A stretch of 42,607 bases of DNA from SRR9188676_970, one strand, 5' to 3'; shown: positions 15,448 to 36,071, counted from the first letter of the stretch. Numbers and translations: made by a program. Notes: generated by a model not told the origin, from the letters alone.

Positions 15448-15519
15448 TAGTCCGTACGGGAATCGAACCCGTGTTTCATCCGTGAAAGGGACGTGTCCTA
15501 ACCCCTAGACGAACGGACC
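15448..15519 (-). tRNA. tRNA-Glu (anticodon TTC), CCA not encoded
   Basis: Minus strand GGTCCGTTCGTCTAGGGGTTAGGACACGTCC-CTTTCAC-GGATGAAACACGGGTTCGATTCCCGTACGGACTA folds as a cloverleaf with a GGTTCGA T-arm. Confidence 0.97.
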
Positions 15520-18516: not shown

Positions 18517-19188
18517 ATGCAAAATCAAAGTGAAATAAAACTTCTTGCTGAAGCTCCTTGGCATTTAACAGGGAATGCTTACGCTATGATTTATAAGTTT
18601 CCGAAAGAGTTTGTTATTGGAAATGGATTTATGGAAGATTTTCAAAAAAGTAGATTTCTAGGATATTTTGGAACAGTAATGTTAGTCGATTACCAATCTT
18701 CAAATGTTGGTAAATATCAAGAATTACTTTTTATTCCTGGTATGTTTACTTTTGATTGGGCAAAAGTATTTTCAATCAGTAAAATATATGTTTCTTCTGA
18801 TGAAAGTGTTTTAAACGGAAGAAAAAATTGGGGAATTCCAAAAGAAAAAGCTGATTTTGAATGGTCAAATGAAGCAGATGGTAAAACAAGTGTAAAGGTA
18901 AGGTTAGATAATAAAATTATTTTTGAGGCAAAATTTAATAAAAACTTTTTGTCTATTCCATTAAAAAATAACTGGTTCACTTTTAAATTGGCTCAAAAAT
19001 CAGAGAATAATTTAATGATTACTCCTTTTAGTTTTAATGGAAAAATTAAACTTTCAAAAGTTAATAAAGTATTGGTTGATGGAACTCACTTTCCTGATGT
19101 TTCACGGTTATCACCATTATTAACTATTCAAGTAAGTAATTTTAAGATGAACTTTGAGGCTGCAAAGATGAAAGAAAATTATTTTTGA
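18517..19188 (+). CDS. Acetoacetate decarboxylase-family protein
   Basis: APWHLTG, VDYQSSNVGKYQEL, IYVS, GRKNWGIPK (Schiff-base Lys position); ATG 18517 preferred over TTG 18496. Confidence 0.75.
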   Translation: MQNQSEIKLLAEAPWHLTGNAYAMIYKFPKEFVIGNGFMEDFQKSRFLGYFGTVMLVDYQSSNVGKYQELLFIPGMFTFDWAKVFSISKIYVSSDESVLNGRKNWGIPKEKADFEWSNEADGKTSVKVRLDNKIIFEAKFNKNFLSIPLKNNWFTFKLAQKSENNLMITPFSFNGKIKLSKVNKVLVDGTHFPDVSRLSPLLTIQVSNFKMNFEAAKMKENYF

Positions 19189-19229
19189 TAATACTTATTG
19201 GTTTTATCTAATAAATAATCCCTGAAATT

Positions 19230-19260
19230 TTTGTTGATTGTAAAATGAGTTATATATTTG
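19230..19260 (+). promoter_or_regulatory. Consensus Bacteroidota promoter with no downstream CDS
   Basis: TTTG (19230-19233), 19-nt spacer, TATATTTG (19253-19260). Confidence 0.7.
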
Positions 19261-19264
19261 TTAA

Positions 19265-19585
19265 AGAGATTATTAATCAAGTTATGGTTGACAATTAAGA
19301 GCAGTTAATATTCTCTATACTTGTACTTAATAACATTCCGCCAAGTGTTAGGATAAGATAAGAAAAAGCTTATATCATTTTGATAGCTTTATTGATTTCT
19401 TCTTTTATAGAATCCTCTCAACTTGCGGTCTCAATCTAACATTACGAACAATTAATTTTCTGTGATTTACTTATAAAGTATTTCATCTAAAAATACGAGA
19501 AAAAATATTGGGCTATGCCCTAAAGATTACTACTTAGGCGGATTGTGTAAAGACTCGGAGCAATGCATCGAGTCTTTATTTTTTT
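19265..19585 (+). ncRNA. Candidate ~320-nt structured ncRNA (RNA-A)
   Basis: Promoter upstream; 5' stem 19265-19276/19305-19316; hairpin taacatt-CCGCCA-agtgtta (19331-19350); long-range pairing 19333-19346/19532-19546; terminator at the end; only tiny ATG-initiated ORFs seen. Confidence 0.55.
19548..19585 (+). terminator. Intrinsic terminator of RNA-A
   Basis: taaagactcg / cgagtcttta followed by T7. Confidence 0.8.
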
Positions 19586-19820
19586 ATAAATTTCACAACC
19601 ACTAATAGACTTATTGATGAAAATTTGATTAAGAAATCTAAATTAAAAGACACTTAAATCATCATATTTTTTCGCTCAAACAACAAATTCTTAAAATTCA
19701 CATCAAAATTTTAGCTTGGAATGGCTAAATTCTTACTTCGTGTAATTCTTGTAAAAATCATAGCATTTTAAATACAACATCGGTGGATTTGTGTTAATTT
19801 TACTTAATCAAATAACAAAA

Positions 19821-19885
19821 TTATGGCGGTAATTTACTATTTGATTACTACAGTAATATTTTTAGATTCTATTTTATGGCGGTAA
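19821..19885 (+). repeat. 12-bp direct repeat TTATGGCGGTAA, two copies
   Basis: Copies at 19821-19832 and 19874-19885. Confidence 0.85.
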
Positions 19886-19950
19886 AAAAGAGTTCTAAAA
19901 TATTATTTACAGACAAGTAAATTTATTTTATTTGTTGTATGATGATTTTG

Positions 19951-19991
19951 AAAAGACCCTTGAATTGGCGGATTCATAGGTCTTTTTTTTT
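19951..19991 (+). terminator. Intrinsic terminator with a TGGCGG loop
   Basis: aaaagacc-ct-tgaat-TGGCGG-attca-ta-ggtctttt, T run to 19991. Confidence 0.75.
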
Positions 19992-20004
19992 GTTTATACT
20001 CTAT

Positions 20005-20045
20005 AAAAAAAAGGGATGATACTTTCTTTCGTATCATCCCTTTTT
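20005..20045 (-). terminator. Intrinsic terminator of glgB
   Basis: aaaaagggatgatac / gtatcatcccttttt, with U8 on the minus strand. Confidence 0.85.
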
Positions 20046-20048
20046 AGG

Positions 20049-22067
20049 TTATTTAACTTTAAGAATACTTGCTCCGAGTGGAGGTATCGTTAAAGAAATG
20101 GAATAGGCTTTTCCTTGCCAAGCAATTTCTTCAGCCATAATTACTGATTTATTGGTTTTCCCGCTTCCTCCGAAATGGTGTTCATCGGAGTTCAAAACTT
20201 CATTCCAAATTCCTTGCATTGGTACGCCAATTCTATAATTATCTCTAGGAACTGGCGTCATATTCAAGATAATGATAAGCTGTTCTTTATTGACATTTCC
20301 TTTTCTTGCATATACAACAACTGAATTATCTCTATCAGAAGTATCAATCCATTCAAAACCTTCATGTGAGAATTGCTTTTCGTATAAAGCAGGCTCTGTT
20401 TTGTATAAATTATTTAGTGCTTTCATAAGGTTTTGGATACCTATATGCGGGGCATGATCTAATAACCACCAATCTAATCCTTTTTCAAAATTCCATTCAG
20501 ATGTTTGTCCGAACTCTCCACCCATAAAAATCAGATTTGTACCTGGGTGAGTAAACATGTATGAAAAGAGGAGCCTTAAATTCGCAAACCTTTGCCATTC
20601 ATCACCTGGCATTTTTCCTATTAAAGATTTTTTGCCATAAACAATCTCATCATGAGAAAGCGGAAGCATAAAATTTTCGGTGAATGCGTAAACCGTAGAG
20701 AATGTTAATTGGTCTTGATGATGACGACGATACATTGGGTCTCTTTGGAAGTAATTTAATGTATCATTCATCCATCCCATCATCCATTTCTGACCAAAGC
20801 CTAAACCTCCAGCATAAATCGGTCTTGAAACGCCCGTAAATGAAGTAGATTCTTCTGCGATAATTTGAATATCTGGAAACTGAGAGTAAATCGTTTCATT
20901 CAATTCTTTGAAAAGAGAAATGGCTTCAAGGTTGTGATTTCCCCCAAAAATATTAGGTTCCCACTCACCATGTTTTCTTGAATAATCTAAATAAAGCATT
21001 GAAGCAACAGCATCAACTCTTAAACCATCAGCATGGTAGCGTTCTAACCAATAAATTGCATTAGAAATCAAAAAGCTACGCACTTCGTTTCTACCATAAT
21101 TGAAAATATAAGATTTCCAATCTGGATGATAGCCTCTACGCATATCTGGGTGTTCGAATAAATGAGTTCCATCGTATTCGTATAACCCGTGTGCATCGCC
21201 CGGAAAATGAGAAGGAACCCAGTCGAGTAATACTCCAATATCGTTTTTATGGCATTCTTCTACCAAATACATGAAATCCTGAGGTGTTCCAAAGCGAGAC
21301 GAAGGAGCAAAATATCCAAGTACTTGGTAACCCCACGAAGGCTCATAAGGGTGTTCCATAATTGGCATGAATTCGATGTGCGTGAAGCCCATTTCTTTTA
21401 CATAATTCACCAATTGGTCTGCTAATTCTACGAAGGTAAGTTTTTCATTTCCTTCTTTTCTTCTCCAAGAACCCACATGTACTTCATAAACAGACATCGG
21501 TGAAGTCAAAGAGTTTTTTGTATGACGCTTTGCCATCCAGTCTGAATCTGTCCATTCATACCAGTTGTCCCAAACTACAGAAGCGGTGCGTGGAGGTGTT
21601 TCAAAGTGTTGGGCATAAGGGTCCATTTTTTCAATAAAACGGTTATCCTGAGTTTGGATACAGAATTTGTAGGTTTCTCCTTTACCAATGTAAGGAATAA
21701 AGCCTTCCCAAATACCTGAAGCATCCCAACGTACAAATAAATGATGGCTACCTTTATCCCAATAGTTAAAATTCCCGATGACAGATACTGATTTTGCTGA
21801 AGGAGCCCAAACTGCAAAATAGACACCTTGTACGCCCTGACATTCTGTAATGTGTGAGCCAAACTTTTCAAATAATCGGTAATGTTTTCCAGCTTTAAAG
21901 AGATCAATGTCGAAATCAGAAAAACGACTGAATACTTCTACATTTTTAAGAATTACTGGAGCACTTGGAGTCTGAATTACTTCTGGTACTTCTACAACTT
22001 CTTTTTTACTTACTTTTTTCTTAGTTGTTTCGGTTGGTTGAGTAGTTGTTTTGGACGTTTTTGCCAT
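20049..22067 (-). CDS. glgB: 1,4-alpha-glucan branching enzyme (GH13_9)
   Basis: FAVWAP, YEVHVGSW, SWGYQ, DWVPSHF, LRVDAVASM, IAEEST, LSHDE. Confidence 0.96.
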   Translation of the reverse strand: MAKTSKTTTQPTETTKKKVSKKEVVEVPEVIQTPSAPVILKNVEVFSRFSDFDIDLFKAGKHYRLFEKFGSHITECQGVQGVYFAVWAPSAKSVSVIGNFNYWDKGSHHLFVRWDASGIWEGFIPYIGKGETYKFCIQTQDNRFIEKMDPYAQHFETPPRTASVVWDNWYEWTDSDWMAKRHTKNSLTSPMSVYEVHVGSWRRKEGNEKLTFVELADQLVNYVKEMGFTHIEFMPIMEHPYEPSWGYQVLGYFAPSSRFGTPQDFMYLVEECHKNDIGVLLDWVPSHFPGDAHGLYEYDGTHLFEHPDMRRGYHPDWKSYIFNYGRNEVRSFLISNAIYWLERYHADGLRVDAVASMLYLDYSRKHGEWEPNIFGGNHNLEAISLFKELNETIYSQFPDIQIIAEESTSFTGVSRPIYAGGLGFGQKWMMGWMNDTLNYFQRDPMYRRHHQDQLTFSTVYAFTENFMLPLSHDEIVYGKKSLIGKMPGDEWQRFANLRLLFSYMFTHPGTNLIFMGGEFGQTSEWNFEKGLDWWLLDHAPHIGIQNLMKALNNLYKTEPALYEKQFSHEGFEWIDTSDRDNSVVVYARKGNVNKEQLIIILNMTPVPRDNYRIGVPMQGIWNEVLNSDEHHFGGSGKTNKSVIMAEEIAWQGKAYSISLTIPPLGASILKVK

Positions 22068-34904: not shown

Positions 34905-36071
34905 ATGAAAAAAATCAGAAGACTCATCTTTCTCCAAGACGTTCTGATTCTTGCTTGTACTTCTTTTGGAGGACCACAAGTACATTTGGCAATGTTTATT
35001 GACCGTTTTGTAAAGAAAAGAAATTATCTCACAGAAGCTGAATTACTTGAACTTCAAGCATTATGTGGATTTCTTCCCGGACCTACTTCTACACAAACAA
35101 TTACTGCATTAGGTTACAAAATCGGTGGGCCAAATTTAGCATATCTGACTTTACTTGTTTGGATTACTCCAGCGGTTACAGTAATGACTGCCGCCGCTTT
35201 TGGAATGACTTATCTTCAGAATAGAAATATCATTAGGTTTATACAACCGATAGGAGTTGCCTTTATTATTCATGCAGGTTTTGTATTAGGACATAAAGTT
35301 ATTAAAAATGTTTCTGGAATAATTTTGATGATACTTGCCGCTGGCTTTGCATTCTATTTTCAGTCACCATGGGTTTTTCCTATCTCATTGATAATTGGAG
35401 GGACATTTACAGCATTCAATTATAAAGATTATCCCCATCAAACAAAACATAAAATGGTTATTCCTTGGGCTAACTTTAATTTGTTTTGGATTTTTTTATT
35501 GTGTTTAGCATTACTTGGGCATTTTACAGATTATGAACCCATTCGATTATTTGAAAACTTTTATCGAAATGGTAGTTTAGTTTTTGGCGGAGGACAAGTA
35601 CTAGCACCAATTCTTTATACTGAATTTGTAGAATTTAAAGAATTAGTAAGGGCTGATGATTTTTTGACTGGGATGGCACTTTCCCAAGCCTTGCCGGGGC
35701 CAGTTTTTGCATTTACTTCTTATTTAGGAACTTTAGTAATGAAAGAAGGCACTTGGTGGGAACAATTATTAGGAAGTGCTGTTGGGGCTGCAGGTATTTT
35801 TTTGCCGGGGACTTTTTTGATATTTTTTGTGTATAGAATCTGGGGACAACTAAAACAATACAGGGGAATTAGAGCTTCATTAGACGGAATAAATGCCACT
35901 TCGATTGGATTGACTTTAGCAGCAGCCGTCACTTTCATTGTTCCAATGGTCAAGCAAGTAGATATTGTTGGTATAGTAACCGTAATTGCTACGTTTTTAA
36001 TCTTACAATTTACCAAAATACCAAGCTTTTTTATTTTCTTGGGGGGATTGATATTGGGCTTTATCTTCTGA
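34905..36071 (+). CDS. chrA: Chromate efflux transporter (long-chain CHR family)
   Basis: SFGGP, LPGPTSTQ, duplicated VFGGG and QALPGP, IFLPG. Confidence 0.88.
   Translation: MKKIRRLIFLQDVLILACTSFGGPQVHLAMFIDRFVKKRNYLTEAELLELQALCGFLPGPTSTQTITALGYKIGGPNLAYLTLLVWITPAVTVMTAAAFGMTYLQNRNIIRFIQPIGVAFIIHAGFVLGHKVIKNVSGIILMILAAGFAFYFQSPWVFPISLIIGGTFTAFNYKDYPHQTKHKMVIPWANFNLFWIFLLCLALLGHFTDYEPIRLFENFYRNGSLVFGGGQVLAPILYTEFVEFKELVRADDFLTGMALSQALPGPVFAFTSYLGTLVMKEGTWWEQLLGSAVGAAGIFLPGTFLIFFVYRIWGQLKQYRGIRASLDGINATSIGLTLAAAVTFIVPMVKQVDIVGIVTVIATFLILQFTKIPSFFIFLGGLILGFIF

Follow-up and report, generated by a model that had tools for sequence, protein, structure and literature searches.

The stretch of DNA analysed here (the window; 42,607 nucleotides) comes from an Arcicella-like bacterium (Cytophagales). 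Two convergent genes, an acetoacetate-decarboxylase-like (ADC-like) gene and a glgB-like branching-enzyme gene, enclose a spacer of 860 bases (19189-20048), which holds the RNA referred to below as RNA-C together with an upstream RNA on the same strand, RNA-B, whose 3′ part is the element B2. The genes beside the locus (Mak_N_cap/APH, pyrF, ADC-like, glgB and pyrB) include none for an RNA-binding protein. The features are as follows:

up to 19188, plus strand: ADC-like gene (end)
19230-19260, plus strand: RNA-B promoter, as read from the sequence (TTTG at 19230-19233, 19 nt, TATATTTG at 19253-19260)
19265-19590, plus strand: RNA-B, about 320 nt, with a 5′ CCGCCA hairpin and the 3′ B2 element
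19331-19350, plus strand: CCGCCA hairpin of RNA-B, loop at 19338-19343, seven pairs including one U-G
19518-19589, plus strand: B2, with single-stranded ACUACUUAGGCGGAUUG (AGGCGG at 19536-19541) followed by a terminator (19549-19586)
19740-19751, plus strand: upstream box GTGTAATTCTTG; distance to the putative RNA-C start about 55-70 nt
19771-19795, plus strand: hairpin 1, an inverted repeat in the promoter region, loop CGGTGG at 19781-19786
19795-19802, plus strand: putative -7 box of RNA-C, TAATTTTA, start expected near 19808-19810
about 19808-19991, plus strand: RNA-C, about 185 nt, 5′ end inferred
19805-19846, plus strand: H2, UGGCGG loop at 19824-19829 (fold and orthologue alignment)
19852-19906, plus strand: H3, a long hairpin, UGGCGG loop at 19877-19882 (fold and orthologue alignment)
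19907-19939, plus strand: motif-free hairpin in the variable region of RNA-C (fold; absent from the predicted consensus structure)
19952-19991, plus strand: intrinsic terminator of RNA-C, UGGCGG loop at 19966-19971, U run (fold and alignment)
down to 20049, minus strand: glgB-like gene (end)

Between RNA-C and glgB, a hairpin of 15 pairs (20008-20045), flanked on either side by runs of A and T, probably serves as bidirectional terminator of glgB. At the other border of the spacer, a contig of RNA sequencing run X1 stops at 19166 and continues with 21 A; this end reflects either the tailed 3′ end of an RNA or priming on the A-rich stretch before the stop codon of the ADC-like gene.

Conserved UGGCGG hairpins in RNA-C

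On the plus strand, the word YGGYGG occurs at 19781, 19824, 19877 and 19966, that is, four times at distances of at most 190 bases inside a spacer of 24-30% G+C. The window as a whole contains 43 copies on both strands versus 19.4 +/- 4.4 in shuffled sequences. Folding of the plus strand of region 19740-19995 yielded a free energy of -63.1 kcal/mol (z = -5.6), which none of 200 shuffles equalled, and all four words are placed in hairpin loops, whereas the minus strand folds more weakly (-45.4 kcal/mol, z = -4.9). The original prediction had described four hairpins with a shared YGGYGG loop. The words and the fold are present, but the loop of hairpin 1 varies among relatives, as detailed below, so that three UGGCGG loops remain. 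These three hairpins, H2, H3 and the terminator, are real and conserved.

An alignment of 15 RNA-C orthologues, comprising the window and 14 genomes, was analysed with RNAalifold and gave 38 consensus pairs, 18 of them supported by compensatory changes. The loops of H3 and of the terminator read UGGCGG in all 15 orthologues and that of H2 in 14, the exception being a genome of 77% completeness (G002) with UAGCGA. The conservation of the loops in orthologues, as had been anticipated, thus holds for these three and fails for hairpin 1. In the stem of H3 many pairs are changed on both sides and the outer pairs of the terminator covary, while in H2 and H3 alike the closing pairs UUA...UAA do not vary within the alignment. 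Counting unique hairpins with helices of at least four pairs, the helices below UGGCGG loops comprise 306 Watson-Crick, 10 G-U and 1 A-C pairs, a count in which instances share descent and to which several different hairpins contribute. Since the stems covary under invariant loops and the G-U pairs mark the plus strand, the repeated motif is a feature of the RNA, and the earlier proposal of selection on RNA structure is borne out.

With UGGCGG in at least two unpaired loops on distinct stems, RNA-C has the layout of an sRNA with multiple loop seeds. The Rfam search suggested in the original prediction, performed with the window at the gathering threshold, with region 19100-20150 at E values up to 10 and with six related loci, returned no relevant match. 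RNA-C represents a new sRNA family that lacks annotation and repeats one seed in its loops. The sole match at gathering score in the window is a tRNA gene at 15448-15519 on the minus strand.

Hairpin 1 and the putative promoter of RNA-C

The loop of hairpin 1 reads CGGTGG in the window, in the nearest genome G001 and in G014, CGGTGT in G020, CGCTGG in G007 and ctatg in G011. The loop therefore differs even between genomes with 86-99% overall identity. The stem is retained or even improved, and more distant species contain no counterpart of the hairpin. Hairpin 1 is located between the GTGTAATTCTTG box and the putative -7 box and hence probably lies upstream of the start of RNA-C. Given the loop changes among close relatives and this probable position, hairpin 1 does not belong to the UGGCGG set; the motif is UGGCGG rather than YGGYGG, and the number of loops is three rather than four.

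Promoters of Bacteroidota follow a consensus of TTTG combined with a -7 box TAnnTTTG. Contrary to the earlier statement that a clear promoter is missing, relatives show TTTG-N19-TAATTTTG just upstream of H2, exemplified by G021 with TTTG 19 nt before TAATTTTG. The latter element, a match to TAnnTTTG, occupies the site at which the window contains TAATTTTA (19795-19802). From this arrangement we infer a start of RNA-C near 19808. The GTGTAATTCTTG box is kept in all Arcicella islands printed, with similar forms in two other genera, and may represent a putative transcription-factor site.

The region is present in RNA libraries, in line with the transcription presupposed by the original prediction. 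Contigs from two studies cover 19818-20011 and 19829-19970, show the highest depth locally and are separate from those of RNA-B; all contigs used here, being metatranscriptome assemblies, define neither strand nor level nor exact ends. Two studies have no contig over 19535-19817, and such gaps are not evidence of silence.

RNA-B, the B2 element and RNA-A

In run X1, a template-switch adapter abuts position 19265 on the plus strand and thereby marks the 5′ end of RNA-B. Contigs of two studies extend over 19275-19534 and 19276-19505. With a promoter and a terminator of its own, the 5′ end at 19265 and contigs apart from those of RNA-C, RNA-B looks as would be expected for a sponge that is made as a separate transcript, the titration itself being putative. 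The loop of its 5′ hairpin (19331-19350), CCGCCA, is the exact complement of UGGCGG, and the U-G pair in this hairpin on the plus strand would be C-A on the minus strand.

CCGCCA hairpins are located upstream of RNA-C in all 15 islands (window and 14 genomes). The window and the five closest species contain one such hairpin, and nine distant Arcicella genomes contain two to five, in most cases three to five. Among the exceptions, G005 is devoid of one C-loop and G023 reads ccgccg in another. For eight genomes, the CCGCCA cluster was modelled as three hexaloop hairpins followed by a U-run terminator; the 47 pairs of this structure include 10 compensatory ones, and G-U pairs that do not vary occur as well. 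Read on the strand of RNA-C and counted in the same manner, again over several different hairpins whose instances share descent and are not independent events, the helices below CCGCCA loops comprise 248 Watson-Crick and 40 G-U pairs and no A-C pair. The ratio of 40 to 0 argues that the CCGCCA hairpins are transcribed from the plus strand and rules out that the set consists of UGGCGG loops on the opposite strand. In the clade of the window, three G-loops in RNA-C are thus faced by only one C-loop in RNA-B. In the nine distant genomes a further RNA, RNA-A, is encoded upstream; it contains two or three UGGCGG hairpins and has a terminator to itself.

Using blastn, B2 was detected at 80-91% identity in 8 of 51 genera of the family that were sampled with 121 genomes. 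In three genera with small genomes, B2 has a promoter of its own and forms, beside glgB, a separate RNA of about 80 nt. B2 is itself an sRNA family that lacks annotation. Within the window, the search for a perfect partner of the B2 seed retrieved the seed itself and nothing else.

The promoters of RNA-B differ between clades. Homologues in genera g34 (L258, L259), g25 (L250) and g20 (L243-L248) are preceded by sigma-54-type promoters of the form TGGCAC-N5-TTGCA, and Arcicella islands carry the form TGGCAT-N5-TTG, instead of which the window's clade has TTTG/TATATTTG. Judged from these motifs, the promoter swap suggests a change of regulatory input between clades.

A second stretch of complementarity was observed in distant species, where the words GCCUAAG and CCCAUAAAA occur in the variable region that corresponds to 19907-19939. 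GCCUAAG(UA), present in both RNA-C and RNA-A of these species, complements (UA)CUUAGGC of B2 over up to 9 nt; the counterpart in B2 of the window lies at 19530-19538, and the RNA-C of the window has lost the GCCUAAG word. This match would make a second contact between the RNAs possible.

Distribution of the locus and background of the motif

The nearest genome, G001 (6.1 Mb), is 99% identical to the window over the spacer and contains TGGCGG 2118 times. In 400 kb of this genome, three of 117 TGGCGG sites are flanked by at least five pairs, and permuted words gave no fewer. Against this low background, three TGGCGG loops within about 150 bases are far beyond chance. The genome scan for other UGGCGG-loop hairpins envisaged in the original prediction therefore showed no enrichment over these 400 kb. 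The missing genome-wide enrichment (3/117) implies that any regulon is small, and a widespread protein-binding UGGCGG motif was rejected because the rate equals that of the permuted controls. In the window, two further TGGCGG sites, at 35585 on the plus and 37964 on the minus strand, have five to six flanking pairs only when G-U pairs are included and are probably due to chance.

By blastn, the region was found in 19 of 25 genomes of the genus, with G017 as a twentieth, and in none of 16 other families of the order. The complete arrangement, an RNA-C with UGGCGG loops together with B2 and CCGCCA loops, recurs in two further genera, g25 and g59. In genus g20, B2 is preceded by CCGCCA and CCGCUA loops, and the locus lacks RNA-C; loops of the UAGCGG type, complementary to CCGCUA, were matched in g20 in coding regions only. 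As judged from these homologues, the RNA-C family comprises Arcicella and at least two or three related genera.

CCGCCA hairpins in front of start codons

A covariance model of the bare hairpin was used to score 150 of about 1100-2200 candidates per genome, so that the resulting list of targets is a lower bound. Among the candidates scored in G001, at least four were strong matches, two of which are located in RNA-C and two elsewhere. CCGCCA hairpins precede the ATG in at least two unrelated mRNA families among the candidates scored, and at these two leaders the complement of the RNA-C loops is, by its sequence, located at the translation start.

The first family encodes a small lipoprotein with signal peptide and lipobox; its match to lipocalins is weak and does not reach the Pfam cut-off. 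On the mRNA strand, gaatttaaCCGCCAttaaatttc-ATG is preceded by a promoter of the form TTTG-N19-TATATTTG. All six genomes of the window's clade have the hairpin, one of them together with a 43%-identical protein and a diverged promoter, and none of the 17 orthologous loci examined at greater distance has it. In the second family, caattaaCCGCCAttaattg is positioned 8-10 nt before the ATG of a surface protein with SdrD_B domain in four of four orthologues (G021, G005, G009 and G016). Both mRNA hairpins have A-U closing pairs like H2 and H3, and eight pairs are possible between AUGGCGGU, found in H2 as well as in H3, and ACCGCCAU, which both mRNA hairpins contain. Likewise, UUGGCGGA of the RNA-C terminator matches UCCGCCAA of the RNA-B hairpin in the window over 8 nt.

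When 40 matches in the genus were inspected, about 22 were located in long open frames, as defined from stop to stop and not by annotation, or were devoid of a hairpin, and were counted as chance. A secure sense UGGCGG hairpin at an mRNA start was not found among the candidates scored.

Outside the island, several loci resemble sRNA genes (L126 and L131 in G005 and G016, L125 in G005, L132 in G012 and L112 in G013); one of these contains three CCGCCA loops and a terminator, two carry CCGCCA in the terminator loop, and one forms a perfect 15-bp hairpin. The loci G001 C4:14251 (L044) and L121 resemble the 5′ hairpin of RNA-B. Moreover, in Arcicella and g20, a single UGGCGG/CCGCCA hairpin is located between a uvrA-like gene and a convergent open reading frame of about 90 codons (G001 C9:126893, L042; L136, L143, L144 and L138; G093, L265).

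Predicted pairing between the loops and alternative readings

In the two genomes of genus g34, the RNA-C homologue has a single motif loop, which reads UGGCAG, and the hairpin upstream of B2 contains CUGCCA. All six pairs are thus preserved by two changes in the two RNAs, which count as a single evolutionary event. The nearest-neighbour model assigns energies of -9.9 to UGGCGG/CCGCCA and -8.4 to UGGCAG/CUGCCA, versus -5.7 and -7.7 to the mixed combinations. Compensation of this kind between two RNAs, as deduced here from their sequences, would be expected from direct pairing. The predicted core between RNA-C and its partners comprises 6 bp, or 8 bp together with the closing pairs. At the level of whole molecules, 30 of 100 shuffles formed duplexes as good as that of RNA-C with the lipoprotein leader and 22 of 100 as good as that of RNA-C with RNA-B; AU-rich sequences produce spurious long duplexes, which deprives this comparison of information.

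We see an about even chance that RNA-C is an sRNA with several seeds, which kiss CCGCCA loops and for which RNA-B competes. In this model, RNA-C would present the UGGCGG seed three times, in the loops of H2, H3 and the terminator, and would dock by loop-loop (kissing) pairing on CCGCCA hairpin loops. Its partner sites would lie in RNA-B, just upstream on the same strand, and in a few mRNA leaders before the start codon, namely those of the lipocalin-like lipoprotein in the window's clade and of the SdrD_B-domain surface protein in other Arcicella. Contact at these leaders would cover the region of ribosome loading and could alter translation or stability of the mRNAs. RNA-B, which copies the mRNA hairpins, would compete as a sponge for the G-loops. 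The pairing, its direction and the assignment of regulator and sponge are predicted from complementarity and conservation. The invariant UUA...UAA closing pairs count against the model because a sequence-specific protein could explain them as well. The short core, the missing enrichment, the exceptions in G002, G005, G023 and g20, and the single C-loop of RNA-B opposite three G-loops in the window's clade weigh against it, too. Two other partners of the motif were rejected by inspection: the 3′ end of tRNA (GCCA), which offers only 4 free nucleotides in the tRNA, and the anti-Shine-Dalgarno sequence, since GGCGG mismatches CCUCC.

A protein could be the addressee of the loops instead, with UGGCGG hairpins and their invariant closing pairs titrating an RNA-binding protein as CsrB does CsrA. 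In favour of this reading, distinct stems present one and the same loop, the closing pairs are kept more strictly than a 6-nt seed would require, and lone UGGCGG hairpins occur elsewhere, for instance beside the uvrA-like gene in two genera. Besides, as the original prediction had stated for studied Bacteroidota, neither CsrA (PF02599) nor Hfq was found in any of the 25 genus genomes, while the control search for CsrA matched E. coli, B. subtilis and T. maritima and the positive controls for Hfq were likewise matched; other RNA-binding proteins must therefore exist. However, a decoy should copy the site in the mRNAs, and the mRNA starts carry CCGCCA on the sense strand, not UGGCGG. As the mRNA sites are the complement of the RNA-C loops, a decoy role fits RNA-B better than RNA-C. 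Moreover, the compensation of UGGCAG by CUGCCA in two RNAs is unexpected for a shared protein site, and no candidate protein was found, either among the neighbouring genes or otherwise. We therefore regard titration of a protein by RNA-C as unlikely. Of the two options in the original prediction, a decoy for a protein or for an sRNA, the former has lost ground, whereas the latter fits the CCGCCA sites at mRNA starts and in the neighbouring RNA.

The roles could also be reversed, so that the RNAs with C-loops regulate and RNA-C is the sponge, or that RNA-C, as a competitor for the 5′ CCGCCA hairpin of RNA-B, frees the conserved GGCGG seed of this RNA. Three sites in one RNA, as in RNA-C, are common in sponges, and RNA-B stands behind sigma-54-like promoters in most relatives, as would be expected for a regulated effector. 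In addition, the minimum-energy fold of the window's RNA-B pairs CCGCC (positions 74-78) with GGCGG of B2 (273-277), and further sRNA-like loci display CCGCCA loops, in some cases in terminator loops. On the other hand, mRNA hairpins bearing CCGCCA can pair with G-loop but not with C-loop RNAs, and the candidates scored did not include a secure case of an mRNA that starts with a UGGCGG hairpin in sense orientation. We consider this inversion quite improbable.

That the spacer yields one long RNA whose loops kiss within or between copies, or that the repeats are DNA operators, is very improbable: the G-loops (five to six, RNA-A plus RNA-C) are similar in number to the C-loops (three to five) in most Arcicella and the X1 contig runs from 19265 past 20400, yet promoters and U-run terminators of their own separate the parts and the contigs are separate with the gap at 19535-19817 in two studies, and an operator role at the DNA level is unlikely, since a dimeric DNA-binding protein keeps the arms and varies the centre of its site, whereas here the arms vary around a fixed centre, and since the G-U pairs are strand-specific.

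Returning to RNA-C as a kissing sRNA with RNA-B as its competitor, the model can be extended to the whole spacer beside glgB, which would then be an RNA-only module of tandem sRNAs with two complementary hexaloop 'colours' that gates surface-protein mRNAs. We offer this extension tentatively and hold it to be rather doubtful. The G-loop side would consist of the B2 seed, RNA-A and RNA-C, and the C-loop side of RNA-B, which has as many as five sites and in most species would depend on sigma-54. Through multivalent kissing, the module would control the number of G-loops available for docking on the single CCGCCA hairpins at start codons and would provide, in this lineage, a translational code in place of control based on Shine-Dalgarno pairing, Hfq and CsrA. 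As for the window's clade, the B2 seed could be hidden by the CCGCCA hairpin to which B2 is fused, until RNA-C takes this hairpin away.

Relation to known systems

RNAIII of staphylococci, sRNAs of the RsaE/RoxS type and the cuckoo RNAs of rhizobia repeat a C-rich loop motif that targets the Shine-Dalgarno sequence of several mRNAs, and the pairing of RNAIII with its mRNAs is partly loop-loop. Similarly, RNA-C repeats its motif in loops on unrelated stems, with the complement at mRNA starts. In contrast to RNAIII, RsaE and the cuckoo RNAs, its motif is the G-rich UGGCGG and the putative targets are dedicated CCGCCA hairpins, and neither sequence nor Rfam relates it to them. Bacteroidota, as far as is known, hardly use Shine-Dalgarno pairing.

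Known sponges, such as RosA for RoxS and FsrA or SroC for GcvB, carry sites complementary to the seeds of their sRNAs. RNA-B likewise contains seed complements, copying the mRNA hairpin up to five times, and may titrate in the same manner. Unlike RosA and SroC, it is arranged in tandem with the sRNAs in one spacer, and its sites are hexaloops, which would permit multivalent kissing.

RNA-C shares with CsrB/RsmZ the combination of many hairpins, one loop motif and variable stems. It differs from them in that it lacks GGA repeats in the loops, its sole GGA spanning the border of loop and stem of the terminator, in that it has no match in Rfam, and in that the mRNA sites, among the candidates scored, bear the complement and not the same motif. 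Recognition through several complementary loops, as proposed for RNA-C, is known from RNAI/RNAII of ColE1 and from CopA/CopT. The latter are cis-antisense RNAs and fully complementary, whereas RNA-B and RNA-C are both encoded on the plus strand, have unrelated stems and match in their loops only.

Rfp18 of Flavobacterium psychrophilum is a structured sRNA; for its third stem-loop, pairing with several mRNAs of proteases and adhesins has been predicted (PMC9723704). This organism also belongs to the Bacteroidota, to a different order than Arcicella, and Rfp18 is compared here with RNA-C by its description. The main text of PMC9723704 contains neither GGCGG nor CCGCC. Searches for literature on sRNAs of Flavobacterium or Arcicella and on sponge or kissing RNAs of Bacteroidetes, at the level of search listings, did not reveal a description of RNA-C.

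Implications

To our knowledge, post-transcriptional control in Bacteroidota outside Bacteroides is almost unexplored. The locus described here offers a compact system of three short RNAs and two mRNA leaders, with proposed contacts of six to eight loop bases. B2, located beside glgB in eight genera, constitutes a second unannotated RNA family and merits an Rfam entry. Should the pairing model fail, the UUA-UGGCGG-UAA hairpins would be a bait for a new RNA-binding protein. If it holds true, the locus would represent the first sRNA regulon, including a built-in sponge, for the Cytophagales, in which targets would be recognised by dedicated hairpin-hairpin kissing instead of single-stranded seeds.
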